Below are positions 2,307-22,808 of a stretch of DNA of 64,000 nt, in pieces (position 1 is the stretch's first letter; every line of letters starts with the position of its first letter). The translations under genes were made by a program, and so were the position numbers. Source of the stretch: Clostridia bacterium (GTDB taxonomy: Bacteria; Bacillota; Clostridia; UMGS1810); NCBI GenBank assembly GCA_045540695.1, contig JAZQHR010000103.1, forward strand, positions 5,346 to 69,345, read 5' to 3'. The notes beneath the pieces were generated by a model that saw only the letters and a program-made list of their open reading frames with translations, was not told the origin of the DNA and searched no databases.

Positions 2307-2364
2307 AAATTTTGTAGAAAAATATGAAATTAAATGGAGAATAATGTATTAGAAGGAGGTGAAA

Positions 2365-6010: not shown

Positions 6011-6049
6011 TACCCAATAAAACAAGTCTTTCAAGTGGAGAGAAGATAT

Positions 6050-6289: not shown

Positions 6290-6300
6290 GGAGAAATAAT

Positions 6301-6477: not shown

Positions 6478-6491
6478 GAGGGGTACTGATA

Positions 6492-6892: not shown

Positions 6893-6902
6893 CGGAGGAT
6901 AA

Positions 6903-7484: not shown

Positions 7485-7500
7485 GAAAGGAGCAATTGAT

Positions 7501-7833: not shown

Positions 7834-8763
7834 TGGGTACATATAGACAATTAGGTGGTGGTGCGTTTTTACAAAAACCATCGTCTACTACGTGGATATA
7901 TAATACAATTAACCAAGGAAAAACATTACCACCTACGTTTAGATTATGGGATTCGCCTATAAAAAATCAATTATCTAAAAGTACATGCGTGGCTCACGCT
8001 TTGGCAAGTGCTATAGAGATTTTACAACACTATGACACCGGTAGTAGAGAAATAATATCTACTAGTTGGTTCTATGGATATAGAGAAGTGGATGACCATC
8101 AACAAGAAGGCATGTATATTTTAGAAGCTTTAGATATGGCAAGAAAAATAGGTGGTGTTCCTAAGTCATTGATGCCTGACAATTTGGGATATCATGAAAG
8201 CCGTAAAATAATACAAGAAATGAAAGATGTCTGCCTAAATGTTTCTTCAAAGTATAAAATTAGAAATTATGCTTCAATAGAAAAGCCAGAAATAATGATG
8301 GGGGATATATGAGAATAATTCGCCAGTAATTATCGGCATGACAGTATATGATTCATTCCTTAATGTTGATAGTACAGGCATTCTGCCAGTTCCAAAAAAG
8401 ACCGAGAAAAGTTATGGTGGACATGCAGTGCTATGTACTGGGTGGACTACCATAAACAACGAAATATATTTGGTTATTAAAAATTCATGGGGAGAATATT
8501 GGGGAGATAATGGATATGCGTATATGAAATTATCAGATGATATGCCTATATATGAAATGTACATTATTTACGATGAAACCGACAATCCGCTATGTTTGAC
8601 GGATATAGTAGGTCATTGGTGCGAAGAAGACACTAAACTTGCAATAAGATGCGGAATATTAAATGGCTACGAAGACAAAACATTTAGACCTGACAACTAT
8701 ATAACAAGGGCAGAGATGTCATCTATTGTTGCAAAATTATTAAGAAAAACGACGATGTATTAA
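7827..8763 (+). pseudogene. Papain-like (C1) cysteine peptidase with C-terminal SLH domain, split by a frameshift in a G5 run
   Basis: ORF 7827-8312 has the Q...C block (IKNQLSKSTCVAHALASAIE). ORF 8338-8763 has the His block (GGHAVLCTGW), the Asn block (IKNSWGEYWGDNGY) and an SLH motif (IVGHWCEEDTKLAIRCGILNGYEDKTFRPDNYITRAEMSSIVAKLL). The second frame is open from 8299. Removing one G from ggggg (8300-8304) joins the frames. Confidence 0.75.
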
Positions 8764-8798
8764 GGAGAATAATAAATTGGTGGCATAAAGCAACGTAA

Positions 8799-8933
8799 AA
8801 ATGGCAAGCAGGAATTTGCGTGAATCAAAAACATATATATTTGGTGGTTTACCAAGACGTTTACGATGCGACGCAAGCAAGAAAACATGCTGAAGAAAAG
8901 TATTTTGGAGAGTACAATTTAAAGACGAGTTAA
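8799..8933 (+). pseudogene. Remnant of an AP2-type DNA-binding domain (homing-endonuclease-associated type)
   Basis: The frame reads KWQAGICVNQKHIYLVVYQDVYDATQARKHAEEKYFGEYN, resembling the AP2 pattern KWxAxI...iyLG.f...eeA..AR..AE.kyFGEy. The preceding GGIKQRKNGK is in another frame. There is no start codon and no nuclease domain. Confidence 0.35.
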
Positions 8934-8946
8934 AAGAGGTAGAAAT

Positions 8947-9579
8947 ATGAAAATAAAAACAAAATTCAATTGGATATCCAACGATTGGAAAAGAATAAAA
9001 AATCATTGTCGAACAACAGATAATAAAGATTTTACCGAGAACGAAGCAACTGAGATATTTAAGAAAAAACTACTCATATCTGAGCATTCGCCAATTCGTC
9101 TTTTGGAATTCGATTGGTCATGGAAATCAATATATTATTGGCTTAGTACCGAGTGGTCTCGTCATAAATTTGAAAAGTTCATTAGTAGCCAGAGAGATGA
9201 CAGACTAAAAGACGATACACCAAGAGGTGAAAAACCTCAAAACGCATTAGTTGATTTTGATGGTTATGCCAATATGCAAAACCTGATAGATGCTTGGCGT
9301 AAAAGATTATGTAGGGCAGCAACAGACGAGGCGAGAGAGTTGGCTGAAGACTTTAAAATAGAGTTACATAAAACGCATCCTTTAGAATCTGATGTGCTTG
9401 TTCCAAACTGTATATATAGGGCAGGTTGCCCTGAGTTTCATTGCTGTAGCTATATAGGCAAGTTTATAAAGTGGGCAAAAGATAATAATAAAGATATTCC
9501 TTGGTTAGACATTCAGGGAAGATATGACTTATACAATGAATATTTTTACCAAGAAAAGGAGAAATCAAATGACAGATAA
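8947..9579 (+). CDS. Divergent ThyX-like (flavin-dependent thymidylate synthase family) protein
   Basis: SEHSPIRLLEFDWSWKSIYYWLSTEWSRHKFEKFISSQR parallels the ThyX core (GHeS.lEh..ftf.i.giSr....ql.RHRxxxxxxxSqR). The later NLIDAWRKRLCRAATDEARELAEDF parallels the R....AqwEir block. The size (210 aa) fits. Confidence 0.45.
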   Translation: MKIKTKFNWISNDWKRIKNHCRTTDNKDFTENEATEIFKKKLLISEHSPIRLLEFDWSWKSIYYWLSTEWSRHKFEKFISSQRDDRLKDDTPRGEKPQNALVDFDGYANMQNLIDAWRKRLCRAATDEARELAEDFKIELHKTHPLESDVLVPNCIYRAGCPEFHCCSYIGKFIKWAKDNNKDIPWLDIQGRYDLYNEYFYQEKEKSNDR

Positions 9580-9850
9580 AATTGAACAACATAAAAAGAT
9601 ATGCCTTCAACTTAATGAGACATATTCTAAAAAAAATCATGACTACGGAGATTCATTCGGTGAAAGTATTAACGAGTGGGGGATTATTTCGGCAGCAACA
9701 CGAATTTCTGACAAATATAACAGATTTAAATCTCTTGTTAAAATTTCAAATAATAATCGCTTAGTTATTGATGAATCATTGGGGGATACATTATTAGACA
9801 TGGCTAATTATTGCATCATGACATATATGGAGTTGAATGGGGATGAATAA
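9569..9850 (+). CDS. DUF1599-like all-alpha protein (nucleotide-metabolism-associated)
   Basis: KKNHDYGDSF...ISDKYNRFKSL...DESLGDTLLDMANYCIM resembles the DUF1599 pattern as I recall it. SD aaaggag gives ATG 9569 (the track starts at 9524). Confidence 0.3.
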   Translation: MTDKIEQHKKICLQLNETYSKKNHDYGDSFGESINEWGIISAATRISDKYNRFKSLVKISNNNRLVIDESLGDTLLDMANYCIMTYMELNGDE

Positions 9851-10427
9851 AATATTTATAGTTGACGATAGCGAAGGTATATTTTCTAACACAATAGGAA
9901 AATACATACCAACCCTTAAATGTTCAATATTAGACCTTCCTAAAGAAGCCGCTAAGGTTTTAGGTTGGGATGGTGATAAGACCGAAAAAGACAGACGATT
10001 TTTAAGTGACATTATGGGTTTGTCAACGGATTATAACGATGCACCATTTAAGGATGTATTGTCACTTGTAACAGATTTTAAGAACAACAAAGATTATGCC
10101 GAATACAAAGTTTTGATTATAGATATGAGAGACCCAAAAGATATTGCTCGTGCCGTTAAAACATTTGGTGCCGACACAATTCTCATCCGCAATCCTAATG
10201 TTAAAAAAATTAATAGCAATCATGCAGATAGAGATGTTGAAAATTATGAATATGACTACATAATAGAAAATAACGGCACACTTGAACAACTCGATGAAGT
10301 TGCAAAAAGATTTGTAAATTATATAAAGAATCATGATAATCAAAAATTCCCATCGGATGCGTATTGTTTGATTAGTCATAGTGGTAAAAAAACAATAGTG
10401 TTTGAGTGCAACAAGATGTTGAGGTGA
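9837..10427 (+). CDS. Phage dNMP-kinase-like protein lacking a Walker A motif
   Basis: The C-terminal two thirds (RRFLSDIMGLSTD, VLIIDMRDPKDIARAVKTFGADTILIRNPN, NHADRDVENYEYDYIIENNGTLEQL) resemble T5-type dNMP kinases from memory. The N-terminus reads IFIVDDSEGIFSNT where GxxxxGK[DTS] is expected. Confidence 0.35.
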   Translation: MGMNKIFIVDDSEGIFSNTIGKYIPTLKCSILDLPKEAAKVLGWDGDKTEKDRRFLSDIMGLSTDYNDAPFKDVLSLVTDFKNNKDYAEYKVLIIDMRDPKDIARAVKTFGADTILIRNPNVKKINSNHADRDVENYEYDYIIENNGTLEQLDEVAKRFVNYIKNHDNQKFPSDAYCLISHSGKKTIVFECNKMLR

Positions 10428-10431
10428 GGAT

Positions 10432-10869
10432 ATGAAGAACTATGTTATATACACCTGTGGAGGTATGGGAAAGTTTGGTAAAGAAAACTTTAATGAAGGA
10501 AACAGTTGGCGATTACATTGTAAAAAGTCTCTTGAAAACTATGATTGCGATTACAAAGTCAAAGTTATAAACCCAAATGACTTTTTTAATTTTATTGACG
10601 AACCGCCACAATATAAAACACAATCTGAAGTTATGAATTTAGATTTGCATAAACTTCGCAATTCCGACTTAGTTATTGCAAACTTTAATGATATGTATTC
10701 TTTGGGTTCAATGGCAGAAATCGCAATAGCCTATGAAAGAAAGATTCCGGTTATCGGTCTTGATATAAATAATCAACATCTTCGCCCTTGGCAAATTGAA
10801 ATGACTGAAAGAATTTTTAACGATATTGATGAAATGCTTGATTATATTCAAAATTTTTATTTAAGATAA
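10432..10869 (+). CDS. Nucleoside 2-deoxyribosyltransferase-like protein
   Basis: Rossmann-like VIYTCGGM start. DLHKLRNSDLVIANF...SLGSMAEIAIAYERKIPVIGL matches the NDT/Rcl-family Asp...Glu pattern. Confidence 0.5.
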   Translation: MKNYVIYTCGGMGKFGKENFNEGNSWRLHCKKSLENYDCDYKVKVINPNDFFNFIDEPPQYKTQSEVMNLDLHKLRNSDLVIANFNDMYSLGSMAEIAIAYERKIPVIGLDINNQHLRPWQIEMTERIFNDIDEMLDYIQNFYLR

Positions 10870-10883
10870 TGGAGAATAATTAT

Positions 10884-11033
10884 ATGGAAGCAAAATTTAA
10901 CTTTGATGATTTCTACAAACAGTTAACCGAAGATGAGCAGCAAATATGTGACTTGTGTAGAGATTTGAATATAGGTAAATGCGAGAAATGCGAGTTTGTT
11001 TTTCGCTTTGCTTCTAAAAAAGATAGGAGGTAA
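10884..11033 (+). CDS. Small Cys-rich ORF (49 aa; below the ORF-track cutoff)
   Basis: My translation is MEAKFNFDDFYKQLTEDEQQICDLCRDLNIGKCEKCEFVFRFASKKDRR. SD ggaga lies upstream. It ends 3 nt before the next start. Confidence 0.4.
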   Translation: MEAKFNFDDFYKQLTEDEQQICDLCRDLNIGKCEKCEFVFRFASKKDRR

Positions 11034-11036
11034 ATT

Positions 11037-11243
11037 ATGAGCGTTGTATTATACACTATTGATTGTCCCAAATGTCTTGTACTAGAAAAAAAGCTTAAAC
11101 AAAAACAAATACCATTTGTAAAAGTTTCTGACCAAGAAATTCTTGTAGCAAAAGGATTTGGAGACGCACATTTTCCAATACTTGAAGTAGACGATGTAAG
11201 AATGGAGTATAGAACATCAATTGAATGGCTTAATAATATATAG
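11037..11243 (+). CDS. NrdH/glutaredoxin-like redoxin
   Basis: 68 aa. VVLYTIDCPKCLVLEKKL has the CxxC at the start of helix 1 typical of the thioredoxin fold. It sits immediately upstream of nrdD. Confidence 0.6.
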   Translation: MSVVLYTIDCPKCLVLEKKLKQKQIPFVKVSDQEILVAKGFGDAHFPILEVDDVRMEYRTSIEWLNNI

Positions 11244-11255
11244 GAGGAAACGATA

Positions 11256-13193
11256 TTGGAAATAAACATTAAATTGAACAAAAATTTTACAACCCAATAC
11301 AACAAACTACAGGCTGAATACGGCACGGATATTGCTCGCATAAACGGGTTTGACGATGGACAGTTGAGCTACACAGATTTTTTGGATAACTTTGTGGCAG
11401 AAACAACGGTTGCAGATGCAAGTATAGATGGCAATAGTAATGTTGGACATAAAGATATTGTGACTCTTGAAAAAGAGATGCCGAAACCTCATGAAAAACT
11501 AATAGCATTCAATAAAATATATCTTGAAATTCAAAAGAAATATGGATTTCAAGCTGCGAATGAATGGCTTAGGGCAGAATGGGTTGGTGAGTTATATATG
11601 CATGATGCAAATACCACAAGTTTTAAACACTACTGTTTTGCCTATGACCTAAAAGACCTCGCTGAAAAAGGACTGTATTTTATAGAAGGAAGAAATGCAG
11701 AGCCAGCACAACACCTTACAACTTTCGTTGATTTTGTAAAAGAATTTATAAGTTATGCAAGTAACCGTAGTTCTGGTGCCGTAGGGCTACCTAATCTTAT
11801 TCCATATATGTTTTATTTTTGGAAAAAAGATATAAACAACAATCATTTTCCAAAAAGTCCTGAATATTATGCAAGACAGGAATTTCAGAGATTTATTCAT
11901 GCGGTAAACCAGCCATACGTAAGAGATGGTTCACAATCTGCGTTCACAAATACATCTGTTTTTGATAGACCATATTTTGAGGCACTATTTGGCGGAGCAG
12001 AATTTCCTGACGGAACATTTATGATTGATTATGAAGAAGAAATTATTGAATTTCAGAAATGGTATATGGAAGTGATGGCTGAAATTCGCCATAAGAATAT
12101 GTTCACGTTTCCAGTAAGCACAATCAGTTTGCTAAGAAAGGATGGCAAGTTTGTTGATGAAGATTTTGCGAAATGGGCAATTAAGCATAATATACAGTGG
12201 GCTGATAGCAATCTTTTTATTGACACAACTGTTAATTCATTATCTAATTGTTGCAGATTAAAAAGTAATATCGAAGACTTAGGTTATTTTAATTCCATTG
12301 GTGGAACGGCTTTAAAGGTTGGTTCTGTAAAAGTATCCACTGTAAACCTAGCTAGACTTGCACTCGACACTAAAACAGAAGATGCTTATATAGAAGAACT
12401 TAAAAAACGTGTGTATATAAATCTTATTGCTCTCGATAGTGTTAGATACATAATAACACGAAATGTTGAGAAAGGTTTGCTACCTAATTTCAAGTACGGT
12501 CTTGTAGATTTTGAACACCTTTATAACACCATAGGTTTTATCGGAATATATGAAACAATGAAGAAGTTTAAATATGTCGAAGTTGATGAGTTTGGTAATA
12601 CATATTATACCGAAAAAGCATCTGCTTTTGGAGAGAGAATTTTTAAGACAATGAGAGAAGTGGCTGATGAGTTTATTAAAGAGAACAACTGCGATTATCA
12701 AATAAATACTGAACAGATTCCGGGTGAATCGGCAGCAGCTAAACTTATGAAAAAAGACAAGTTCTTTTATCCTAGGGCAAAGATTTACGACTTGCCTTTA
12801 TATGGTAACCAGTTTATACCTTTAGGTATTAAAACAACAGGGCAAGAACGTGTAAGAATTGCATCAGAATTTGATGGATATTGTTCTGGTGGCTCAATAC
12901 TCCACTATAATATTGACGCACCATTCGATTCTTTTGAAAAAGCTTGGAAGATGGTTAATTACATAGCAGATCAAGGAGTAACATATTTTGCGTTCAATAC
13001 AAAAATTCAAGCTTGTATTAATAATCATGCTTTTTATGGTAAAATTTGTCCAACGTGTGGAAATCCAGTTTCTACAGAATTCAGCAGAATTGTTGGTTTC
13101 TTCACACCTGTAAGAACATACTCGAAAGAACGAAAAGCAGAATTCGACCTTAGAGAATGGGCAGACACCAACGCCGAAACAGAAAGAGTTTGA
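11256..13193 (+). CDS. nrdD: Anaerobic (class III) ribonucleoside-triphosphate reductase
   Basis: LSNCCRLKS thiyl-loop motif. C-terminal Zn site CINNH...CPTCGN followed by the glycyl-radical motif SRIVGFFTPV. 645 aa, TTG start after SD ggagg. Confidence 0.9.
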   Translation: MEINIKLNKNFTTQYNKLQAEYGTDIARINGFDDGQLSYTDFLDNFVAETTVADASIDGNSNVGHKDIVTLEKEMPKPHEKLIAFNKIYLEIQKKYGFQAANEWLRAEWVGELYMHDANTTSFKHYCFAYDLKDLAEKGLYFIEGRNAEPAQHLTTFVDFVKEFISYASNRSSGAVGLPNLIPYMFYFWKKDINNNHFPKSPEYYARQEFQRFIHAVNQPYVRDGSQSAFTNTSVFDRPYFEALFGGAEFPDGTFMIDYEEEIIEFQKWYMEVMAEIRHKNMFTFPVSTISLLRKDGKFVDEDFAKWAIKHNIQWADSNLFIDTTVNSLSNCCRLKSNIEDLGYFNSIGGTALKVGSVKVSTVNLARLALDTKTEDAYIEELKKRVYINLIALDSVRYIITRNVEKGLLPNFKYGLVDFEHLYNTIGFIGIYETMKKFKYVEVDEFGNTYYTEKASAFGERIFKTMREVADEFIKENNCDYQINTEQIPGESAAAKLMKKDKFFYPRAKIYDLPLYGNQFIPLGIKTTGQERVRIASEFDGYCSGGSILHYNIDAPFDSFEKAWKMVNYIADQGVTYFAFNTKIQACINNHAFYGKICPTCGNPVSTEFSRIVGFFTPVRTYSKERKAEFDLREWADTNAETERV

Positions 13194-13195
13194 AG

Positions 13196-13657
13196 ATGAA
13201 GATTAAGGGTCTTATAACCGAAGACTTTGTAAACTATAAAAAGGTATCTATGACAATAATGTTCCCGCACTGTGACTTTAAATGCAGTGCGGAGCATTGT
13301 CAAAATAGTCCTTTAGCAAAGGCAAAAACATATGATATAGACATTGATAAAACAGTTGAAAAATATCTAAACAACCCTATAACAGAAGCGGTAGTGATGC
13401 AAGGACTTGAGCCGTTTGATTCATGGTCAGATTTAGTAAAATTCATAGCCAAATTGAGAGAAAAATCACGAGATGATGTTGTAATATACACGGGTTATAA
13501 TAAGGCTGAAATTGCCAATAAAATCGATATTTTAAAGCAATACAAAAATATAATAATTAAATTCGGAAGGTTTATTCCAAATCAAGAAAAACATTATGAC
13601 GAAGTGCTTGGTGTATACTTAGCATCAGACAATCAATATGGAGAGGTAATAAGTTGA
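13196..13657 (+). CDS. nrdG: Anaerobic RNR activating protein (radical SAM)
   Basis: MFPHCDFKCSAEHC Cys cluster near the N-terminus. Position directly after nrdD. ATG 13196 lies 3 nt after the nrdD stop (the track starts at 13157, inside nrdD). Confidence 0.75.
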   Translation: MKIKGLITEDFVNYKKVSMTIMFPHCDFKCSAEHCQNSPLAKAKTYDIDIDKTVEKYLNNPITEAVVMQGLEPFDSWSDLVKFIAKLREKSRDDVVIYTGYNKAEIANKIDILKQYKNIIIKFGRFIPNQEKHYDEVLGVYLASDNQYGEVIS

Positions 13658-13836
13658 AGATTAGACTATCAGAAGATAAAGATTTAGTAGAAGAAATTAA
13701 GCAAAAACTAAAAGATAATGGTGGTTTTTGCCCGTGTAGATTAGAAAAAACTCCTGATACAAAATGTCCATGTAAAGAATTCAAAGAACAAGACAAGTCA
13801 GGAGAGTGTCATTGTGGGCTTTATATTAAAGAATAA
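13654..13836 (+). CDS. Mini ferredoxin:thioredoxin-reductase catalytic-subunit-like protein (CPC-CPC-CHC)
   Basis: GGFCPCRLEKTPDTKCPCKEFKEQDKSGECHCGLY carries all six Cys of the FTR catalytic motif. The TTG start overlaps the nrdG stop (gTTGA); SD ggagagg lies upstream. Confidence 0.55.
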   Translation: MKIRLSEDKDLVEEIKQKLKDNGGFCPCRLEKTPDTKCPCKEFKEQDKSGECHCGLYIKE

Positions 13837-13858
13837 TATGTCGACAGGAGATATTAAA

Positions 13859-14302
13859 ATGCTAGAAATGAATATAAATATTAAGAAAAATACTAATACA
13901 GCAATAATACCAAAAAGAGAAACAATCGGCTCTGCGGGAGCTGACTTATCAGCAGATATAAACGAACCTGTATTAATAAGACCACATGAAACAGTTAAAA
14001 TTCCAACAGGTATATCTATTGAGTTGCCTGAAGGAACATTTGGCGCTATTGTTGCAAGAAGTGGGTTATCTACTAAAGAAGGTTTACGCCCTGCCAACTG
14101 TTTTGGTGTAATAGATGAAGATTATAGAGGTAATTGTGTAGTTGCATTACATAATGATAGTGATGAAACAAGAATTGTTGAGCCAAATCAACGCATAGCA
14201 CAACTTATAATTATTCCATATATAGCAGCCAATTTTGTAGAAGTTAAAGATTTATCAGAAACAGACAGAGGCAAAGGCGGTTTTGGTAGTACAGGAAAAT
14301 AA
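13859..14302 (+). CDS. dut: dUTP diphosphatase (phage copy)
   Basis: GSAGADL, ARSGLS, IDEDYRG and C-terminal RGKGGFGSTGK motifs. SD aggag gives ATG 13859. Confidence 0.9.
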   Translation: MLEMNINIKKNTNTAIIPKRETIGSAGADLSADINEPVLIRPHETVKIPTGISIELPEGTFGAIVARSGLSTKEGLRPANCFGVIDEDYRGNCVVALHNDSDETRIVEPNQRIAQLIIIPYIAANFVEVKDLSETDRGKGGFGSTGK

Positions 14303-14305
14303 AAT

Positions 14306-14334
14306 TTAAAAATATTTAAAAATATTAAAAATAA
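14306..14334. repeat. Three helically phased A-tract repeats, TAAAAATAT(T)
   Basis: ttaaaaatatttaaaaatattaaaaataagg: units spaced 9-10 nt, directly upstream of the Xis-like gene. Confidence 0.5.
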
Positions 14335-14347
14335 GGGAGTTTACATA

Positions 14348-14623
14348 TTGAAGCTTAATAAAGAATACGTCGAAAATTTACCATTTACCATTCAAGAAAG
14401 AATTCACCAACTTAACAAACTAATTGAAGAATATCCATCAAAAATCCCTACTGTAAAAGTAGCGAAATTTTTAGGTATGGATATAGATTGTTTAAGAAGG
14501 GGGATAGAACAAGGTAAAATACCTTTTGCTCTTGGATGTGACAACGATACATATGGGAATAGATACACTTATGTATCATCACTTACATTCTATTTATGGT
14601 GTATATCTCCGTCGCTTCGATAA
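14348..14623 (+). CDS. Putative excisionase/HTH DNA-binding protein
   Basis: HTH-like VKVAKFLGMDIDCLRRGIEQGKIPF. Position immediately upstream of the integrase. TTG start after SD aagggag. Confidence 0.35.
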   Translation: MKLNKEYVENLPFTIQERIHQLNKLIEEYPSKIPTVKVAKFLGMDIDCLRRGIEQGKIPFALGCDNDTYGNRYTYVSSLTFYLWCISPSLR

Positions 14624-14637
14624 AACGTTTTAAAAAC

Positions 14638-14666
14638 TTGATAATGCCATAACATTATGATATAAT
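14638..14666 (+). promoter_or_regulatory. Sigma-70/SigA-type promoter upstream of the integrase gene
   Basis: TTGATA (14638-14643), 17-nt spacer, TATAAT (14661-14666). Confidence 0.55.
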
Positions 14667-14709
14667 ATAATCACATTTCAAAGAATTTATATCTGTGTTA
14701 TGGCATTAT
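14641..14709. repeat. 14-bp perfect inverted repeat bracketing the int promoter
   Basis: ataatgccataaca (14641-14654) and tgttatggcattat (14696-14709). Confidence 0.6.
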
Positions 14710-14743
14710 TTATACTTTTGATATTAATCGAGGAGGAATAATA

Positions 14744-15802
14744 ATGTATGATGCAAGTATAAAAAAAAGAAAAGATGGTAGACTCGAAATGCAAATAGTC
14801 GTTGGAGTTGATGATAACGGAAAAAGAGTTAGAAAATCTTTTTACGGACATTCTGAAAGAGAGGTGAAGAAAAAAAGAGACAAGTGGGTAAAAGAAACCA
14901 ATATATATAAAGAGCTTAAAGTTGGCAAAACAGACGCCTTTTCATCGTGGGCAGACATTTGGCTGGAGACATACAAAAAACCTGTCGTTAGACCATACAC
15001 ATATGAAAACACATATAGAACACGCGTCGAAAAGTATCTTAAACCTTATTTTAAAAATCGAGATTTAAATGCAATTACCCAAAAAGATATTCAGGATTTT
15101 TTTAACTCTCATAAAGAAGTGTCTACGGCTTTGCTTAAAACGTTAAGAATAATTTTAAAAAATATATTTGACAAAGCGATCATTAATGACTTGTGTTCGA
15201 AAAATCCAGTTAATGATATCAAACTATCATCAAATTACGAAGAAAAAGAAAGACAGGCTTATAACGCTAAACAACAACGATTAGCAATTCAATGGGCTAT
15301 GGATAACAACAAAACCGATATTCTTATAGCTTTAAAAACCGGAATTCGAAGAGGAGAATTGTTTGGATTGCGATGGAATGATGTAGATTTGAAAAATAAA
15401 ATAATATATATTAATCAATCTATTAGTCCAAAAGTAAAAGGTGTGGAAGAAATTGATACAAAATTAAAATCTAAATCTAGTAAACGAGCGATACCTATAG
15501 ATAATGAACTTGTCGAATGGCTTTCGTTTTTACCAAATGAAAATGAACGACTTTTTGACTCTCCATCGGTAGATGCTTTTGCGAAGAAAATAAATAAATC
15601 TTTGAAACAAATGTCTAAGGATTGTAATATACCAAGTTTAACACTACACGAATTAAGACATACGTTTGGAACTGTATTGAGAGAAAATGGAGTTGATATA
15701 TATTCAATTTCAAAACTAATGGGACATTCAAGCGTTGCAGTAACAGAAGCAATTTACGTTCATAATGATATAGAAGTGCTGCGCCGTGCAATGCGTATTT
15801 AA
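14744..15802 (+). CDS. int: Tyrosine site-specific integrase (phage integrase family)
   Basis: C-terminal catalytic region: GIRRGELFGLRWNDV (Arg), HELRHTFGT (H-x-x-R), LMGHSS...Y. Adjacent to the tRNA fragment. Confidence 0.9.
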   Translation: MYDASIKKRKDGRLEMQIVVGVDDNGKRVRKSFYGHSEREVKKKRDKWVKETNIYKELKVGKTDAFSSWADIWLETYKKPVVRPYTYENTYRTRVEKYLKPYFKNRDLNAITQKDIQDFFNSHKEVSTALLKTLRIILKNIFDKAIINDLCSKNPVNDIKLSSNYEEKERQAYNAKQQRLAIQWAMDNNKTDILIALKTGIRRGELFGLRWNDVDLKNKIIYINQSISPKVKGVEEIDTKLKSKSSKRAIPIDNELVEWLSFLPNENERLFDSPSVDAFAKKINKSLKQMSKDCNIPSLTLHELRHTFGTVLRENGVDIYSISKLMGHSSVAVTEAIYVHNDIEVLRRAMRI

Positions 15803-15882
15803 TTATAACATCCTGCCAGTCAGTGTCAGTCAATTTAAATAAAGATGGCTTAACAAAGCCATTTGAGAGGACTGTTTCCGTC

Positions 15883-15941
15883 TTGGAAATGCTGTGAACG
15901 TTCAAAGCGTTCCGAGGGTTCGAATCCCTTCCTCTCCTCCA
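15883..15941 (+). tRNA. 3' fragment of a type-II (long-variable-arm, probably Ser-type) tRNA; att-site remnant, not an intact gene
   Basis: T-arm gaggg-ttcgaat-ccctt (15914-15930), acceptor 3' strand cctctcc, then tCCA (to 15941). 7-bp variable arm gaacgtt-caa-agcgttc (15896-15912). No matching 5' acceptor strand (ggagagg), D-arm or 5' anticodon-stem strand upstream. Confidence 0.5.
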
Positions 15942-15950
15942 TAAACAAAA

Positions 15951-15976
15951 AGCATCCTTTAAAGGATGTTTTTTTG
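15951..15976 (+). terminator. Rho-independent terminator after the tRNA fragment
   Basis: agcatcct-ttaa-aggatgtt hairpin followed by a T7 run. Confidence 0.7.
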
Positions 15977-16175
15977 TTTTGTATTATTCATTTTTCATTA
16001 TTCTTTTAATGTGACAGGATTTTTTAATGAATAATGAATGATGAAGCCGCTACGCTTATGAATAATTAATAATTATGGTAGCTTTGCTTATACAATACTT
16101 TTTTATTAAAGGTCGCACTAATTTATTTTATTTACATATATTTTAAAATATGATATAATAATATAAAAGTTTAAC

Positions 16176-16190
16176 TCAACTAATAGTTGA
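16176..16190. promoter_or_regulatory. Perfect 7-1-7 palindrome TCAACTAATAGTTGA; candidate operator upstream of the HTH-serine dehydratase gene
   Basis: tcaacta-a-tagttga. The half-site AGTTGAT recurs at 16226-16232 and, upstream of the second HTH fusion, at 20411-20417. Confidence 0.3.
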
Positions 16191-16284
16191 TAATATTTAT
16201 ATAAAATATTTCATAAAACATTTATAGTTGATAGAATTTCACTTATAATAGTATAAAATGGTAAATTTTATGAGGTGAAAAAAT

Positions 16285-17715
16285 TTGAACGAATTTAGAT
16301 ACGAAAAGATTAAAGAATTAAGACGGAAAAATAATATGTCGCAAAAACTTCTTGGAGAGATGCTGGGGATAAGTGATCGTGCAGTTTCTAAATGGGAAAC
16401 AGGGCTTTCTCAGCCGTCAGGTAAAAATCTTATTTCTATGTCAAAAATATTTAACGTACCGGTTGAGTACTTTTTAAATATTTCTGAAAGTAGCAAACAT
16501 ATAAAAAAAGAAAAAGGTATGGAGTCTATAACAGAGCTATACAAGATAGGCAGAGGTCCGTCAAGTTCTCACACCATTGGTCCTGAAAAAGCTTGTGTGA
16601 TATTTAAAGATAAATATAAAGATGCTGATAAATTTAAAGCTATACTTTATGGCTCACTTGCTAAAACAGGCAAAGGACACGGAACAGATGTCGTTATAAA
16701 GAAAACATTTTCACCTTATGAATGCAGTATAGAGTTTGATTATACAAATGCTGATATTCCTCATCCAAACACTATGGAGCTTATAGCGTACTCCAAAAAT
16801 AAAGAATTATGCAGAGAAAAGGTGTTCAGCATTGGCGGAGGAAGCATAGCTTTTGAAAACGATGTTATAACACCGCCTGAAAGGATATATGCACTTGACA
16901 AGTTCAGCGACATATCCGACTACTGCGAGGAAAAAGGTATTCGTATATGGGAATATGCTCTTGAAAACGAGGATGACAATTTTATCGACTATATGCATAA
17001 AATTTGGGAAGCTATGAAAACATCAGTCAAAAATGGACTTACTGACACAGGTTTACTTCCCGGCGGACTTGATGTTCAGAAAAAAGCAAAAGTATTATAC
17101 AACAGTCAGCACATAGATGAAACCAATGAAACACGTGAAAACCGCATAGTTTGTTCGTATGCATTTGCGGTTGGTGAGCAAAATGCATCGGGCGAAAAGA
17201 TAGTTACTGCACCAACCTGCGGTGCGGCGGGAATAGTTCCGGCGGTGCTTTTGTATCAGCAGCAAAAGAATAATTTCAGCGATGAAAGCATCGTTCATGC
17301 ACTTATGACTGCGGGTATAATGGGAAACCTTATCAAGACAAATGCATCTATATCGGGTGCAGAATGTGGCTGTCAAGCAGAGGTTGGAAGTGCATGTGCG
17401 ATGGCGGCAGCGGCATTGGCGGAGCTTTTTGGACTTTCGATTGACAAAATCGAGTATGCGGCTGAAATTGCTATAGAGCATCATTTAGGTCTTACCTGCG
17501 ACCCTATATGTGGTCTTGTGCAGATACCTTGCATAGAGAGAAATGCCGTTGCGGCAATGCGTGCTATAAATGCAGTAAACCTTTCAAGCTTTCTATGGGA
17601 TACCAGAAAGATTTCGTTTGACAAGGTTGTGCAGACTATGAAAGAAACGGGCGAAGATATGCATGTTTCATACAAGGAAACCTCAGAGGCGGGACTTGCG
17701 AAGATAAATATATAA
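16285..17715 (+). CDS. XRE-family HTH domain fused to an iron-sulfur L-serine dehydratase (single-chain type)
   Basis: Residues 1-64 are an XRE HTH (MSQKLLGEMLGISDRAVSKWETG). From M79 the sequence is MESITELYKIGRGPSSSHTIGP (the SdaA N-terminal signature), then TAPTCGAAGIVPAVL, and the Cys ligand contexts ECGCQAEVGSA, LTCDP and IPCIERNA. Confidence 0.8.
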   Translation: MNEFRYEKIKELRRKNNMSQKLLGEMLGISDRAVSKWETGLSQPSGKNLISMSKIFNVPVEYFLNISESSKHIKKEKGMESITELYKIGRGPSSSHTIGPEKACVIFKDKYKDADKFKAILYGSLAKTGKGHGTDVVIKKTFSPYECSIEFDYTNADIPHPNTMELIAYSKNKELCREKVFSIGGGSIAFENDVITPPERIYALDKFSDISDYCEEKGIRIWEYALENEDDNFIDYMHKIWEAMKTSVKNGLTDTGLLPGGLDVQKKAKVLYNSQHIDETNETRENRIVCSYAFAVGEQNASGEKIVTAPTCGAAGIVPAVLLYQQQKNNFSDESIVHALMTAGIMGNLIKTNASISGAECGCQAEVGSACAMAAAALAELFGLSIDKIEYAAEIAIEHHLGLTCDPICGLVQIPCIERNAVAAMRAINAVNLSSFLWDTRKISFDKVVQTMKETGEDMHVSYKETSEAGLAKINI

Positions 17716-17737
17716 TAGGTACGAAAGGAATTTTATT

Positions 17738-19048
17738 ATGAAATTACCAAAAATGAAATTTACTGCAGCTGGTGATATGCTTATTCAAAGGCTTATATCA
17801 ACAAAATACGAAGGATTTGATGCAGTAAGAGATTATATATCAAAAGGTGATGCAAGATTTTTCAATTTTGAATCTATAATTTACCGTGAGGGTATATGGG
17901 GAAATTATTTTAATGGAGGTTCATTCCATAATTCTGACCCAAAAACACTGGACATTGCAAAAGAATATGGCTTTAATATGATGACATTTGCGAACAACCA
18001 CACATTTGACTGGGGATATGGCGGACTTATATCTACACTTGATGCACTAAAGGAAACAGATTTTGTTCACGCAGGTGTAGGAATGAATCTTGATGAGGCT
18101 GCTTCTCCTGCATATCTTGAAACGCCTACTGGTAGAGTTGCACTGATTTCTATGGCATCGTCTATAGCTGACCCATCAGCCATGGCGGGTAAGCAGTCAA
18201 GACGTATACCTGGACGACCTGGTGTAAATGCACTTAGAACCAATGAATATATAGAAGTAACTAAAGAGCAGTTTGATGCCCTTAAAGCTATAGCGGAAAC
18301 AAGCGGTATAAACGCTGAACACGCAATTCTTCAGGCGGAAGGTTATGCAGCTCTGAACGAAGATACAGATGTAGTCGAACTAAGCAATAAAATTAAATTT
18401 CGTTTGGGCGACAAGGCAAAACATCACGTTAGCTTAAACGAAAAGGATATGACAAGGCTTGAAAAGGCTATTTACGAAGCAAAATCGCAGGCGGACTACA
18501 TACTTATAAGTATTCACGGACACGAGGTTTCGGGTAATGCAAAAGAAATTCCTGCAGATTTCTTAAAAGAATTTGCACATCGCTGTATTGATATGGGTGC
18601 ACACGCGGTATTAGGACATGGTCCGCATCTGTTGAGACCACTTGAGATTTATAAAAATTGCCCAATATTCTATTCGCTCGGTGATTTTATGCTACATAAC
18701 GAGAGTGTTACATTTGCTCCAGAGGATATGTATGAAAAGTATGGTCTAACTTCTGATGATCCGATATGTGATATCTATCGCAAACGTTCACGTAATTATA
18801 CAGTTGGACTTCTTACTGACAGAAGAATGATGGAGGCGGTAATTCCATACTTTGAAATGGAAGACGGAAAGCTTACTCATTTGGAGCTTATGCCGATTGA
18901 GCTTGGTTTTGGTGAGCCACGTTATCGTCTTGGAAATCCAAGATTTTGCACAGACAGAGGCATTATTGAGCGTCTTGCCGACATGTCTGCTCCTTACGGA
19001 ACTAAAATCAGCATAAATGACGAAGGCATAGGCATTGTTGAGTTATAA
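17738..19048 (+). CDS. CapA/PGA_cap-family metallophosphoesterase-like protein
   Basis: FTAAGDMLI, FFNFESII, ANNHTFDWGYGG, ISIHGHE, GHGPH and YSLGDF motifs. Confidence 0.7.
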   Translation: MKLPKMKFTAAGDMLIQRLISTKYEGFDAVRDYISKGDARFFNFESIIYREGIWGNYFNGGSFHNSDPKTLDIAKEYGFNMMTFANNHTFDWGYGGLISTLDALKETDFVHAGVGMNLDEAASPAYLETPTGRVALISMASSIADPSAMAGKQSRRIPGRPGVNALRTNEYIEVTKEQFDALKAIAETSGINAEHAILQAEGYAALNEDTDVVELSNKIKFRLGDKAKHHVSLNEKDMTRLEKAIYEAKSQADYILISIHGHEVSGNAKEIPADFLKEFAHRCIDMGAHAVLGHGPHLLRPLEIYKNCPIFYSLGDFMLHNESVTFAPEDMYEKYGLTSDDPICDIYRKRSRNYTVGLLTDRRMMEAVIPYFEMEDGKLTHLELMPIELGFGEPRYRLGNPRFCTDRGIIERLADMSAPYGTKISINDEGIGIVEL

Positions 19049-19075
19049 AATTATATTATTGGGAGATATGAAATT

Positions 19076-20260
19076 ATGAAATCTATTTCAGAAAAATGCA
19101 AACAAATAGAAGATAAGCTTATATCACTTCGAAGAGAGCTTCACAAATATCCTGAAATAGGCGGAGATTTGCCGAAAACAAAAGAAATTGTATGCCGTGA
19201 GCTTGACAGAATGGGTATTTCGTACAAGGAAAACACAACTGATGATGGTGTAATAGCAAATATAAAAGGTGCAAAAATTGGCAAAACAATAGCATTTCGT
19301 GCTGATATGGACGGACTTCACATAAATGAAGCGACAAACCTACCATTTAAGTCGGAAATCGAAGGACAGATGCATGGCTGCGGACACGATGCACACACTG
19401 CTATACTTCTTGCGACTGCTGAAATATTAAATAACTGTAAAGATGAAATAAATGGCACAGTGAGATTACTATTCCAGACAGGTGAAGAAACAGGAACAGG
19501 AGCAAAAAATATGCTATCTGAAGGTGCAATTGACGGTGTAGATGCTATTTGTGCTATTCATGTTGGTAACCTTGCAGGTGACAGTCTTCCAGCAGGCTCG
19601 GTGGTTGTTCTTCCGGGTCCGGTAAGTGCAGGAAAGGACAAGTTCACCATAACTGTGCACGGCAAAGGAACACACACTGCATTTCCTGAAAAGGGGATTG
19701 ACCCTATACTTATAGCTGCAAGAATTGTAAATGCGTGCGAAGAAATGTCGGCAAGAGAGCTTCCTGTGGGAACTGCGGCTGTTTTAAGCTTTGGAAGCTT
19801 TAATGCAGGGATTGACCACAACACTATTCCTGACACTGCTGTTCTTAAGGGAAGTATACGTGTTCAGGACGTAAACACAAGAAACTTCATGGGCGAAAGA
19901 CTTAAATCAATAGCTGAAAACATTGCAAAAGCGTTTAGAGCTGAATGCACAGTTGATATAAAAAGAGGCTCATCTACGGTAATGAATGATAAAAGCTTAA
20001 GTGAACTTGTAGCAAAATCCGTTACCGATGCACTTGGTGACGAAATGGTATACACATCTATTCCATCGCCACTTATGGGTTCCGACGACTTTGCAAATTA
20101 TGCCGAGAAAATTCCGGGAGTATATTTCTTCCTTTGCACAAACAATAAGGATAAAGGCATTATTCAGGCGAATCATAACCCTGAATTTGACGTCGATGAA
20201 GATGTATTATGGAAGGGCGTAGCTGCATACTGTGCTACTGCAATTGAATTTTTAAAATAA
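19076..20260 (+). CDS. M20-family amidohydrolase (N-acyl-amino-acid amidohydrolase type)
   Basis: LRRELHKYPEIG, HGCGHDAHTA and FQTGEE motifs. Confidence 0.8.
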   Translation: MKSISEKCKQIEDKLISLRRELHKYPEIGGDLPKTKEIVCRELDRMGISYKENTTDDGVIANIKGAKIGKTIAFRADMDGLHINEATNLPFKSEIEGQMHGCGHDAHTAILLATAEILNNCKDEINGTVRLLFQTGEETGTGAKNMLSEGAIDGVDAICAIHVGNLAGDSLPAGSVVVLPGPVSAGKDKFTITVHGKGTHTAFPEKGIDPILIAARIVNACEEMSARELPVGTAAVLSFGSFNAGIDHNTIPDTAVLKGSIRVQDVNTRNFMGERLKSIAENIAKAFRAECTVDIKRGSSTVMNDKSLSELVAKSVTDALGDEMVYTSIPSPLMGSDDFANYAEKIPGVYFFLCTNNKDKGIIQANHNPEFDVDEDVLWKGVAAYCATAIEFLK

Positions 20261-20271
20261 TTTATTTTTAT

Positions 20272-20296
20272 AAGCCTGCTTTTGCAGGCTTTTTTG
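20272..20296 (+). terminator. Rho-independent terminator
   Basis: aagcctgc-tttt-gcaggctt followed by a T-run. Confidence 0.75.
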
Positions 20297-20491
20297 TTTG
20301 TTGTGTAAAGTGTTATTTACGTAATACACAGAAAAAATAATAATAGAATTGATATCAACAGTAATTAAATGAAATTTCGCAACCAAAGGTTGCTACAAAA
20401 ATCAAACTAAAGTTGATTGATATAAAACGAGTAATTTGCTAATATTATAATAAAAGAATTTATATAAAAGCTATGAAAGGCGGATAAAACG

Positions 20492-22111
20492 ATGACAATA
20501 GGTGAAAAAATCTCACAGCTTAGATTGTCTAAAAATATTTCTCAGGAACAACTCGCAGAGAAAATTTCTGTTTCAAGACAGTCGGTATCAAAGTGGGAGA
20601 TGGACCAGGCACTACCACAAATAGATAAGGTGCTTCAATTATGCGAATTATTTAATATATCAACTGATGATCTATTACAAGATAAAATTGCATTAAAGCA
20701 AAATACAAATAAGGATTTTTGCCATAACAAATATTTTGGTACTGATGGCTTCAGGGGTGAAGCAAATGTTAACCTGACATCTTTTCAGGCGTATAGGGTA
20801 GGTAGATTTTTAGGCTGGTATTACTCTTCTGAACTTTCAGGTTGCACTAAAGCAGGGTATAGACCAAGAATTGTAATAGGAAAGGATACCCGACGTTCAA
20901 GCTATATGCTGGAATATTCTATTGTTGCAGGCATTACTGCATCAGGTGCAGATGCATATATGCTTCACGTTACTACAACGCCAAGTGTGTCGTATGTTAC
21001 ACGCCAGGATGAGTTTGATTGTGGTATTATGATTACTGCATCACACAATCCATATTACGATAATGGCATAAAAATTATAAACAAATATGGCGAAAAGCTT
21101 GATGACAAAACGACCGCACTTATCGAAAGTTATATCGATGGAGATTTAAATATACTTGGTGTTTTGGAAGATGATTTACCTCTTGCGTGTCGGGAAAAAA
21201 TAGGTTGTATTGTCGATTATGTTTCGGGTAGAAACAGATATGTCGGATACCTTATTTCACTTGCATCAAATTCATATAAAAACCTAAAAATAGGTCTTGA
21301 CTGTGCAAATGGTGCATCGTGGATGATTGCAAAATCAGTGTTTGGTGCACTTGGTGCTCAAACCTTTGTTATTGGTGCTGAACCGGACGGATTAAACGTA
21401 AATAGCGGATGCGGTTCAACACACATTGAAAATTTATGTAAGCTTGTAAAAGAAAAACATCTAGACTTAGGTTTTGCATTTGACGGGGATACTGACAGAT
21501 GTATTGCCGTCGACGGAAATGGTAACGTTGTAGATGGCGATGCTATGATGTATATACTTGCTAAACGTCTAAAATCGCGTGGTATGCTTAATAATGACAC
21601 AGTTGTTGCTACTATAATGTCAAATAGCGGACTTATTTCAAGTCTTGAAAAAATAGGTATAAAATGTGAGCAGACAACAGTTGGTGACAGATTTGTGTAT
21701 GAATGTATGCAAAACAATGATTACAGTCTTGGCGGTGAGCAATCAGGACATATCATATTAAAGAAATATGCTACCACTGGCGATGGATTATTAACAGCTA
21801 TAATGATTACCGAGGAAGTTTGTGATAGTAAAATGTCACTTTCTGAACTTGCAAGTCCGGTAAAACTATATCCTCAATACACCATAAATGTTCGTGTAAA
21901 GGATAAATCAGCAGTTTTAGCTGATGGAGAAGTAATATCTTCATTAGAAAGTGTAAAAAATCTTATTGGTGATAACGGAAGAGCACTTCTTAGACAGAGT
22001 GGAACAGAGCCTGTAATAAGAATTATGATAGAATGCGAAAATGAGAGTAAGTGCGTAGAATACGCAAATGTTATTGCAGATAAGATAAGCGAAAGGGGAC
22101 ATAACGCTTGA
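20492..22111 (+). CDS. glmM: XRE-family HTH domain fused to phosphoglucosamine mutase
   Basis: Residues 1-64 are an XRE HTH (ISQEQLAEKISVSRQSVSKWEMD). From residue 79 the sequence is NKYFGTDGFRGEAN (the GlmM N-terminus without its Met), then TASHNPYYDNGIK (phosphoserine loop), GFAFDGDTDR (metal loop) and GGEQSGH. Confidence 0.85.
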   Translation: MTIGEKISQLRLSKNISQEQLAEKISVSRQSVSKWEMDQALPQIDKVLQLCELFNISTDDLLQDKIALKQNTNKDFCHNKYFGTDGFRGEANVNLTSFQAYRVGRFLGWYYSSELSGCTKAGYRPRIVIGKDTRRSSYMLEYSIVAGITASGADAYMLHVTTTPSVSYVTRQDEFDCGIMITASHNPYYDNGIKIINKYGEKLDDKTTALIESYIDGDLNILGVLEDDLPLACREKIGCIVDYVSGRNRYVGYLISLASNSYKNLKIGLDCANGASWMIAKSVFGALGAQTFVIGAEPDGLNVNSGCGSTHIENLCKLVKEKHLDLGFAFDGDTDRCIAVDGNGNVVDGDAMMYILAKRLKSRGMLNNDTVVATIMSNSGLISSLEKIGIKCEQTTVGDRFVYECMQNNDYSLGGEQSGHIILKKYATTGDGLLTAIMITEEVCDSKMSLSELASPVKLYPQYTINVRVKDKSAVLADGEVISSLESVKNLIGDNGRALLRQSGTEPVIRIMIECENESKCVEYANVIADKISERGHNA

Positions 22112-22770
22112 ATAAAATTGTTAAGACGAGAGAGCTTTTTGACTGCAAAACTTTGTATTTAAAAGAGCTTTTCGAAAGCTCTGAATACCCATGGGAGATG
22201 CTTCCTAAAATAAAGGCGTATATTTTAAATTTGATCGAACAAGGTTTAAGCGGTTATACTAAATATGCAGAAGGTGTTTATGTAGGTGAAAATGTCAAGA
22301 TATATCCTAATGTAACTATCGAAGCACCAGCAATAATAGGCGAAGGTACAGAAATTCGACCAGGAGCATTTATAAGAGGAAATGTTATTACTGGAAAAAA
22401 CTGTGTAATAGGTAATTCTACGGAATTAAAAAATTGCATACTTCTCGATAATGTTCAGGTTCCGCATTATAACTATGTTGGTGATTCAGTCCTTGGAAAC
22501 TATGCCCACATGGGTGCAGGTTCTATATGTTCTAATCTTAAGTCTGATGGTAAACCGGTAGTAATACATGCTGATGTAGATATTGAAACTGGACTTCGAA
22601 AAATTGGCGGAATATTAGGTGATTACGCGGATGTTGGTTGCGGTTGTGTCCTAAATCCGGGTACTGTAATTGGAAAAAACACTTCTGTATACCCATTGAC
22701 ACCGCTTAGAGGAGTGTATCCTTCAGAGTGTATAGTCAAATCCACTCATAATATAGTAAAAAGAATATAA
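22108..22770 (+). CDS. Hexapeptide-repeat (left-handed beta-helix) transferase, GlmU C-terminal-domain-like
   Basis: Repeated [LIV]G-x4 hexapeptides through residues about 60-200. TGAA overlap with the glmM-fusion stop. Confidence 0.6.
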   Translation: MNKIVKTRELFDCKTLYLKELFESSEYPWEMLPKIKAYILNLIEQGLSGYTKYAEGVYVGENVKIYPNVTIEAPAIIGEGTEIRPGAFIRGNVITGKNCVIGNSTELKNCILLDNVQVPHYNYVGDSVLGNYAHMGAGSICSNLKSDGKPVVIHADVDIETGLRKIGGILGDYADVGCGCVLNPGTVIGKNTSVYPLTPLRGVYPSECIVKSTHNIVKRI

Positions 22771-22779
22771 ATGTAAAAA

Positions 22780-22808
22780 ATTCTGCATTTGTGTTGCAGA
22801 ATTTTTTT
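22780..22808 (+). terminator. Rho-independent terminator
   Basis: attctgca-tttgtgt-tgcagaat followed by T7. It lies inside the long version of ORF 22791, which argues for the later start. Confidence 0.75.

Follow-up and report, generated by a model that had tools for sequence, protein, structure and literature searches.

Candidate self-regulating enzymes: XRE-type DNA-binding domains fused to GlmM and L-serine dehydratase in Clostridia

Architecture of the two fused genes

The window analysed here, a 64-kb stretch of contig JAZQHR010000103.1 from a Clostridia bacterium, carries two metabolic genes that both begin with a helix-turn-helix (HTH) module of the XRE/Cro-C1 type and continue, after a short linker, into an enzyme (Table 1). 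HTH-sda (open reading frame (ORF) 16285-17715; 476 aa; TTG start with the Shine-Dalgarno sequence GAGGTG at 16272-16277) encodes a fusion to an L-serine dehydratase, Sda, with the Pfam domains HTH_3 (residues 9-63), SDH_beta (81-136) and SDH_alpha (216-472). HTH-glmM (ORF 20492-22111; 539 aa; ATG start) encodes a fusion to the phosphoglucosamine mutase GlmM, with HTH_3 (7-61) and PGM_PMM domains I-IV (80-530). Against the HTH_3 cutoff of 23, the HTHs of the two fusions score 60.1 and 53.8 bits, and the proteins exceed the equivalog cutoffs of NCBIfam TIGR00720 sda_mono (410.3 bits; cutoff 345.1) and TIGR01455 glmM (495.4 bits; cutoff 447.55). The two HTHs are 34% identical to each other, and no other ORF of the window carries such an HTH. 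The DNA examined comprised the window and ±10 kb around loci in related genomes.

The first-pass annotation of this DNA had read both fusions as single genes. They are genuine single ORFs, and the HTH-glmM frame is uninterrupted in at least 21 further species-representative genomes. All of the fused-glmM genomes are metagenome-assembled genomes (MAGs) of uncultured Acutalibacteraceae-like Clostridia; their labels include Acutalibacteraceae, Clostridia, Eubacteriales and Ruminococcus, and their named sources are mostly herbivore guts (goat, water deer, rabbit). In 90%-identity protein clusters drawn from ENA, NCBI, JGI and Logan assemblies (four independent sources), the HTH_3 + enzyme architecture was found in all of the best-scoring 120 clusters listed for each protein, at 72-92% identity and nearly always at full length. 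A sequencing or assembly error that joined separate HTH and enzyme genes is therefore refuted, by at least 120 independent clusters from these sources, by in-frame junctions in 21 other genomes and by a GlmM module without a start codon of its own, and we give this explanation practically no weight. The fusions had been considered rare; this fails for the sequence databases, where both architectures are common, and stands for the literature, in which our search for HTH-GlmM or HTH-serine dehydratase retrieved no description of either fusion. The database names, where given, are 'phosphoglucosamine mutase' and 'L-serine ammonia-lyase', from which the HTH half is absent. Both enzymes start at about residue 79, as the annotation had pointed out, and this shared junction position is expected for any fusion of an HTH of ~65 aa and a linker of ~14 aa.

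The GlmM module begins at about residue 79-80 (N-K-Y-F-G-T-D-G) with Asn instead of the native Met, which is replaced in all fused orthologs. As no start codon occurs in frame between codons 48 and 110, the earlier claim that GlmM is made only as the fusion is upheld. Residues 79-532 align to Bacillus subtilis GlmM (7OJR; E 2.5e-122), and the alignment with Bacillus anthracis GlmM (3PDK) likewise runs end to end. Relative to these alignments the catalytic loops TASHNP, DGDTDR, GEQSGH and QSGTEP are present, and S184, H185, D331, D333, D335, R336, E416 and H420 are invariant across 48 HTH-GlmM sequences. The module thus resembles canonical Firmicute GlmM (7OJR, 3PDK and Staphylococcus aureus 6GYZ) in its four-domain fold and in its phosphoserine, metal, sugar and phosphate loops, and differs from it by the extra 78 N-terminal residues of HTH and linker and by the missing native start. 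The gene context differs as well: the gene arrangement of canonical Firmicute glmM is cdaA-cdaR-glmM, whereas here glmM forms an operon with a left-handed beta-helix (LbH) acetyltransferase gene, and no cyclic di-AMP cyclase gene adjoins it.

In HTH-Sda the enzyme module starts at residue 79 with Met (ATG 16519-16521), and both G78 and M79 are invariant across 46 sequences. The dehydratase aligns to the Legionella pneumophila enzyme 4RQO (E 2.3e-82) with the GCQ, TCDP and PCIERN cysteine contexts retained, and the cluster cysteines C363, C405 and C416 are invariant across the same 46 Sda-fusion sequences. The catalytic motifs of both enzymes, previously noted as intact, thus appear so in the alignments to 7OJR, 3PDK and 4RQO. 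Like the type 2 single-chain Fe-S dehydratases (4RQO; Escherichia coli SdaA), HTH-Sda has its beta and then its alpha domain in one chain with three cluster-cysteine contexts. Unlike 4RQO, it has an N-terminal HTH and linker, lacks a counterpart of ~40 residues of the Legionella beta domain, and ends in …AKINI without a Cys; the C-terminal Cys of the Legionella dehydratase has a functional role. The SDH_beta Pfam match comes in two stretches, the best of which covers profile positions 1-62 of 155. A free dehydratase isoform initiated at ATG 16519 had also been considered conceivable. Met79 is invariant, yet no Shine-Dalgarno sequence is conserved before it, and the purine-rich run that had been taken for a possible ribosome-binding site has its GG just 1 nt from the ATG, with nothing there conserved in orthologs. 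In comparison, GAGGTG or GAGGTA precedes the true start codon in all nine Sda orthologs, and an internal start at Met79 is unsupported by these alignments.

AlphaFold2 (AF2) models place a five-helix bundle at the N-terminus of both proteins, with helices 3-13, 18-25, 29-36, 44-54 and 58-62 in the GlmM fusion and 6-15, 20-27, 31-38, 46-56 and 60-63 in the Sda fusion; the predicted local distance difference test score (pLDDT), averaged over 10-residue blocks, is 77-90 and 79-92 in the respective bundles. Most orthologs have a GlmM linker of 14-17 aa; that of L016 is 28 aa long.

Table 1. Features of the HTH-sda and HTH-glmM loci, in window coordinates
Feature	Position	Strand	Evidence
Predicted distal operator of HTH-Sda, TCAACTAATAGTTGA (TCAAC-N5-GTTGA)	16176..16190	+	Exact CAAC-N5-GTTG match
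HTH-sda promoter: -35 TTTATA 16221-16226, GTTGA half-site 16227-16231, -10 TATAAT 16244-16249	16221..16249	+	Promoter scan, 17-nt spacer
XRE/Cro-C1 HTH module of HTH-Sda, residues 1-65	16285..16479	+	HTH_3 E 2.2e-16; recognition helix ISDRAVSKWE
Flexible linker of HTH-Sda, residues 66-78	16480..16518	+	22% mean identity; pLDDT <50 at 67-75
Single-chain Fe-S L-serine dehydratase, residues 79-476, beta then alpha domain	16519..17715	+	TIGR00720, 4RQO
Predicted operator O1 of HTH-GlmM, GCAACCAAAGGTTGC (GCAAC-N5-GTTGC)	20379..20393	+	Conserved inverted repeat
Predicted weaker operator O2, TCAAACTAAAGTTGA (TCAAn-N5-GTTGn)	20402..20416	+	Anchored alignment, 21 promoters
HTH-glmM operon promoter, -35 TTGATA, -10 TAATAT, 17-nt spacer	20417..20445	+	Promoter scan
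XRE/Cro-C1 HTH module of HTH-GlmM, residues 1-63	20492..20680	+	HTH_3 E 1.9e-14; recognition helix VSRQSVSKWE
Linker of HTH-GlmM, ~residues 64-78	20681..20725	+	26% mean identity; pLDDT <50 at 65-77
Phosphoglucosamine mutase module, residues 79-539, four domains	20726..22111	+	TIGR01455; 7OJR, 3PDK
LbH acetyltransferase gene, GlmU C-terminal-half-like	22108..22770	+	Pfam Hexapep, Hexapep_GlmU; NCBIfam Arch_glmU C-terminal region
CapA-like (PGA_cap) gene 17738-19048 and M20 amidohydrolase gene 19076-20260	17738..20260	+	Pfam, NCBIfam

Predicted operators at the two promoters

Conserved inverted repeats lie upstream of both fused genes. The GCAAC-N5-GTTGC repeat, allowing at most one mismatch within 300 nt upstream, was found at 18 of 20 fused glmM genes, which belong to phylogenetically related loci, 15 of the sites falling at -96 to -143. 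Only 2 of 57 unfused glmM genes have such an upstream site, and the background amounts to 0.009 sites per 300 bp. Exact copies number 15 in 379 kb of fused-genome DNA, all of them upstream of HTH-glmM. The centre of O1 is 23 bp from that of O2, which ends exactly where the -35 hexamer begins; in the alignment of 21 promoters the TCAA and GTTG of O2 are conserved at a fixed distance from O1, and most orthologs have a -35-like TTGnTT hexamer overlapping the right half of O2. The promoter calls came from a scan independent of the operator predictions. In two loci with unfused glmM, L018 and L019, the HTH and the GCAAC-N5-GTTGC operator are both absent, which we read as a natural case of the DNA-binding domain being lost along with its predicted site. 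The shared core CAAC-N5-GTTG occurs three times in the whole window against 0.72 expected, and two of these three are O1 and the Sda palindrome.

For sda we compared 8 fused orthologs, obtained by exact-protein look-ups, with 6 unfused loci; a metagenome scan for further fused Sda orthologs yielded distant unfused genes only. The palindrome is located at -105 to -111 from the start codon in 8/8 fused orthologs, two of which (L093 and L098) have an exact or near-exact repeat with N10 spacing and one (L095) a degenerate right half-site with 1 mismatch at N5. Closer to the gene, the block C(C/A)TTTATAGTTG, which is the -35 hexamer directly followed by a GTTG half-site, is invariant in 9/9 fused sda loci while the remaining spacer varies. 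The sequence TATAGTTG was likewise present in all 8 fused orthologs and in none of the 6 unfused ones. The unfused loci (n = 6) lacked the palindrome and the block, with one 1-mismatch site at an unrelated position. A stronger promoter-like site (16131-16159; TTTACA-17-TATAAT, 11/12 matches, TG-extended) was also seen just upstream of the Sda palindrome, which from this promoter would fall at about +10 to +25; the site is not clearly conserved in orthologs.

At both promoters the half-sites are conserved and the spacers variable, as would be expected for a site bound by protein rather than for an RNA stem. An RNA element in the leaders (riboswitch, T-box or glmS ribozyme) was considered and rejected, since Rfam finds only RNase P in the window and the palindrome arms show no compensatory changes and lie upstream of the predicted -35. 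The single Rfam match is a bacterial class A RNase P RNA at 43539-43886 (294 bits). Together, the conserved predicted operators upstream of both genes lend support to the self-regulating role that had been suggested for these enzymes.

Descent, neighbourhood and selection

Loci with glmM were collected from species-representative genomes by a scan driven by query-specific peptide patterns, of which the best 80 were kept. The nearest unfused GlmMs among the loci listed are 55-61% identical. A neighbour-joining tree, computed from the enzyme part with no bootstrap, groups the fused GlmMs in one clade on a long stem; the unfused glmM of L018 and L019, with enzyme parts 72-73% identical, are nested within it. 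This nesting argues for a single fusion event, after which the HTH was lost at least twice.

The LbH acetyltransferase gene, the second gene of the HTH-glmM operon, overlaps glmM by 4 nt, and the operon is bounded by terminator-like hairpins at 20272-20291 and 22775-22807. Of the 21 other fused loci, 17 have an LbH gene immediately downstream of glmM; in about 20 unfused relatives it also adjoins glmM, mostly upstream. Because the pairing is found in fused and unfused relatives alike, the fused gene would be the ordinary glmM ortholog and not an extra paralog. No second glmM locus from a fused-glmM genome appeared among the best 80 loci of the pattern-based scan. The gene order is glmM-LbH in the fused clade (L001-L023) and LbH-glmM in many unfused Oscillospirales-like relatives (L027-L073), and these maps indicate that a local rearrangement accompanied the glmM fusion.

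The neighbours of HTH-sda differ in every genome examined. The first-pass annotation had taken the 4-kb distance between the two fusions as a sign of a shared mechanism. In none of the 21 other fused-glmM genomes does HTH-sda lie within 10 kb of HTH-glmM, and we rejected a conserved linkage. The proximity is peculiar to this genome and, with variable neighbours and HTHs of 34% identity, does not support a shared mechanism. The CapA-like and M20 genes follow HTH-sda after gaps of ~22 and ~27 nt, with the first terminator-like hairpin only at 20272-20291, so that they are probably co-transcribed with it in this genome only; in other genomes they are unlinked to HTH-sda. The CapA-like protein has partial similarity to the model of the lasso-peptide epimerase MslH, far under the cutoff. 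At L099 (4660-6156), the gene directly downstream of HTH-sda encodes an unfused 498-aa protein of the PGM/PMM superfamily that has Pfam domains I-III only and is not a GlmM-type match.

We compared the modules of each protein by codon alignment (21 orthologs of GlmM, 9 of Sda), using amino acid identity and the ratio of nonsynonymous to synonymous change (pN/pS). The HTH modules have 68% identity and a pN/pS of 0.27 in the GlmM fusion and 65% and 0.29 in the Sda fusion, compared to 75% and 0.23, and 79% and 0.17, in the respective enzyme modules. The linkers have 26% identity (pN/pS 0.71) in GlmM and 22% (pN/pS 0.77) in Sda. The recognition helices are invariant in the orthologs, as VSRQxVSKWE in GlmM and ISDRAVSKWE in Sda, and V27, S28, R29, Q30, S33, K34, W35 and E36 of the GlmM HTH are invariant across 48 sequences. 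These substitution patterns indicate that the HTH modules are functional and under purifying selection almost matching that on the enzymes. They also bear on the proposal that the HTH is vestigial or a protein-interaction module and that the palindromes are structural DNA or belong to another regulator. In its favour, protein contacts are occasionally made through XRE-like folds. Set against the strong selection, the invariant recognition-helix residues, a palindrome that tracks the presence of the HTH and is gone together with it in L018 and L019, and two different HTHs each paired with its own palindrome variant, we regard this proposal as very improbable.

A wider HTH-enzyme family was looked for without success in 1.84 billion representative proteins, with the GlmM HTH as query; the top matches were multi-HTH repeat proteins and fragments, and the nearest single-HTH relatives had no Pfam enzyme domain. 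A profile scan of the fetched loci found one other long HTH protein only, a 329-aa protein at L004 (18568-19554) with an N-terminal HTH closely like the GlmM type (…VSRQAVSKWE…) followed by several predicted transmembrane segments. The fusion HTH may have been recruited from a standalone regulator of this kind.

The window is otherwise a Clostridia-type chromosome segment (33.5% GC) with spoIIA-sigF, spoIIIA, murB, whiA, pfkA, pyk and valS aboard, and holds a prophage or integrative element at 1-15974 with many small phage-like ORFs. Reading of the translations suggests a TnpB-like ORF (2359-3600) and NrdD/NrdG-like ORFs (11256-13657) in this region, which also holds a dUTPase-like ORF (13814-14302; 34% identity to the Pfam-annotated dUTPase of L098), a 91-aa ORF and a tyrosine integrase ORF (14744-15802). 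The integrase is followed by a tRNA 3′-end fragment at ~15895-15941 (GGTTCGAATCC…CTCCTCCA), where no full tRNA was called, and then, at 15947-15974, by a terminator; the tRNA fragment is probably what is left of an att site. We rejected the neighbouring prophage as the donor of the HTH, as the tRNA fragment and terminator stand between the integrase and the sda promoter and orthologs have the same fusion with no phage near. Synteny of NrdD-NrdG-Dut upstream of HTH-sda in the window and L098 was also rejected because the proteins are not homologous.

Proposed self-regulation, its alternatives and known relatives

Enzymes that double as their own transcription factor form an established class, the trigger enzymes (concept of Commichau & Stulke 2008, as cited in PMC5397151 and PMC3602430). 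Among them BirA (biotin ligase/repressor), NadR, PutA and the archaeal RbkR (riboflavin kinase/regulator) are fusions joining a DNA-binding domain to an enzyme, and they control their own pathway (PMC5397151, PMC3602430). The two fusions described here likewise combine in one polypeptide a DNA-binding domain and an intact-looking pathway enzyme, with predicted operators before their own genes. RbkR is the nearest analogue in evolutionary pattern, since RbkR likewise takes the place of the plain enzyme throughout a clade, has predicted operators and has secondarily lost its DNA-binding domain in some lineages. Unlike the winged helix of BirA and RbkR, the domain is an XRE/Cro-C1 HTH here; the DNA-binding domain of PutA is a ribbon-helix-helix. 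GlmM, Fe-S L-serine dehydratase, UDP-N-acetylglucosamine (UDP-GlcNAc) supply and serine catabolism are not among the described trigger enzymes and their pathways.

In domain type the nearest analogue is BzdR. BzdR/BoxR consist of an XRE HTH and a shikimate-kinase-like domain that has lost activity and senses benzoyl-CoA, a ~40-residue linker being needed for signal transfer (PMC3602430). A synthetic HTH-shikimate kinase chimera, Q1, is a working substrate-responsive repressor, both enzyme and regulator (PMC3602430). The fusions share with BzdR the N-terminal XRE HTH, linker and enzyme-fold domain, BzdR being dimeric and binding operators at its target promoter, and differ from it in their intact catalytic residues and in a linker that is short and poorly conserved. 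Because the catalytic residues are kept and the defining loss is absent, we rejected a BzdR-type regulator for both. The related possibility that the enzyme modules are pure sensors, with an unfused housekeeping glmM or sdaA elsewhere performing the catalysis, draws on the BzdR precedent and on the gene at L099, which shows that these organisms have other genes of the PGM superfamily. It appears improbable in view of the intact catalytic loops and cluster cysteines, the exceeded TIGR01455 and TIGR00720 equivalog cutoffs, the enzyme module as the site of strongest purifying selection in each protein, the GlmU-C-like partner that fused glmM keeps in common with ordinary glmM, and the lack of a second glmM locus from fused genomes among the best 80 found by pattern.

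From the combined sequence comparisons we consider it probable that HTH-GlmM and HTH-Sda are autoregulatory bifunctional trigger enzymes carrying an N-terminal XRE HTH on a tether of ~14 residues. In this model the enzyme body would supply dimerisation. GlmM crystallises as an M-shaped dimer and Fe-S serine dehydratases are dimeric, so that two HTHs would be presented together to the 15-bp inverted repeat that has CAAC-N5-GTTG as its core and lies upstream of the promoter of the same gene. Binding would extend cooperatively to another site or half-site, weaker than the first, which touches the -35 in the case of GlmM or lies just inside the promoter spacer in that of Sda. Occupancy of this proximal site would then set the access of RNA polymerase and with it transcription of the protein's own operon, that is HTH-glmM and the glucosamine 1-phosphate (GlcN-1-P) acetyltransferase-like gene for GlmM, and HTH-sda for Sda. 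Negative autoregulation is, in our view, the most likely sign of control.

The best PDB sequence matches of the HTHs are to XRE repressors of phages and mobile elements (P22 C2, 434 repressor, ICEBs1 ImmR-type); P22 C2 is among the nearest matches of the Sda HTH, and the ICEBs1 Xre-family regulator 7T8I was matched by the GlmM HTH. These repressors bind as dimers to short inverted repeats and use neighbouring operators in pairs, spaced by about two helical turns. They differ from the fusions in dimerising through a small C-terminal domain, where a whole metabolic enzyme sits here.

Several observations weigh against autoregulation as proposed, or against parts of it. The fused loci are related by descent, hence 18 operators in 20 genes are not 18 independent observations. 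Two loci are fused yet have a degenerate operator: in L007 (2118-3740; Acutalibacter sp. MAG031) the recognition helix of the fused GlmM is altered to SVCKWE and no site matches the operator with 2 or fewer mismatches, and in L010 a fused GlmM with AISKWE is accompanied by a 2-mismatch operator (GTAAAC…GTTGC). Either co-divergence of HTH and site or decay could account for this pattern. The positions that we infer for O1 (about -66), O2 (about -43) and the Sda palindrome (about -78) would also fit activation. The AF2 monomers have a moderate overall confidence (mean pLDDT 73 and 78), because the alignments are shallow. Finally, the linkers evolve near-neutrally, which argues against a precise BzdR-like allosteric relay and weakens the metabolite-sensing part of the proposal.

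The last point raises the alternative of constitutive autogenous control, in which the enzyme is only a dimerisation scaffold and the protein represses its promoter as its concentration rises. The enzyme level would thereby be buffered, with DNA binding unaffected by substrates. Linkers of 22-26% identity and a pN/pS of 0.7-0.8 that are predicted to be disordered are ill-suited to an allosteric path, and in the DNA examined the predicted operators were found at the genes' own promoters only, as in a pure autoregulator. On the other hand, ligand modulates DNA binding in BirA, RbkR, PutA and the synthetic HTH-shikimate kinase chimera, and the linker length is fairly constant, with K65 and I66, the first residues of the GlmM linker, nearly invariant. 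We regard constitutive control as a serious alternative, though not a probable one.

By analogy with those same four proteins, ligand control of the autoregulatory enzymes is plausible. Modulation by glucosamine 6-phosphate (GlcN-6-P), GlcN-1-P or the phospho-enzyme state is possible for GlmM, and by serine or the state of the Fe-S cluster for Sda. A more far-reaching reading makes the fusions metabolite-responsive one-component switches that would have taken over, in this clade, homeostasis of the amino-sugar supply for the cell wall and of serine catabolism, in which HTH-GlmM would read GlcN-phosphate or its own phosphorylation and HTH-Sda would read serine or cluster integrity. As O2 of glmM (TCAAA-N5-GTTGA) is one mismatch from an operator of the Sda type and the CAAC-N5-GTTG core is shared, GlmM and Sda could in addition cross-regulate each other, which would link serine/pyruvate metabolism with the making of peptidoglycan precursors. 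We consider such switches unlikely.

Self-regulation by a fused enzyme is a known strategy that was not previously described for GlmM or L-serine dehydratase, and the present annotation, which names these proteins as enzymes only, hides their regulatory half. The two enzymes would be added to the short list of trigger enzymes together with natural loss controls in L018 and L019, and the fusions would be the natural equivalent, in living cells, of the artificial HTH-enzyme intermediate constructed for BzdR evolution. Peptidoglycan synthesis takes its first committed amino-sugar-1-phosphate from GlmM, the control of whose level is poorly understood beyond glmS-centred circuits. A clade with a DNA-binding domain on its glmM ortholog and a recognisable predicted operator would offer a simple system for studying how cell-wall precursors are sensed, and the Sda fusion would provide the same opportunity for an oxygen-labile Fe-S enzyme.

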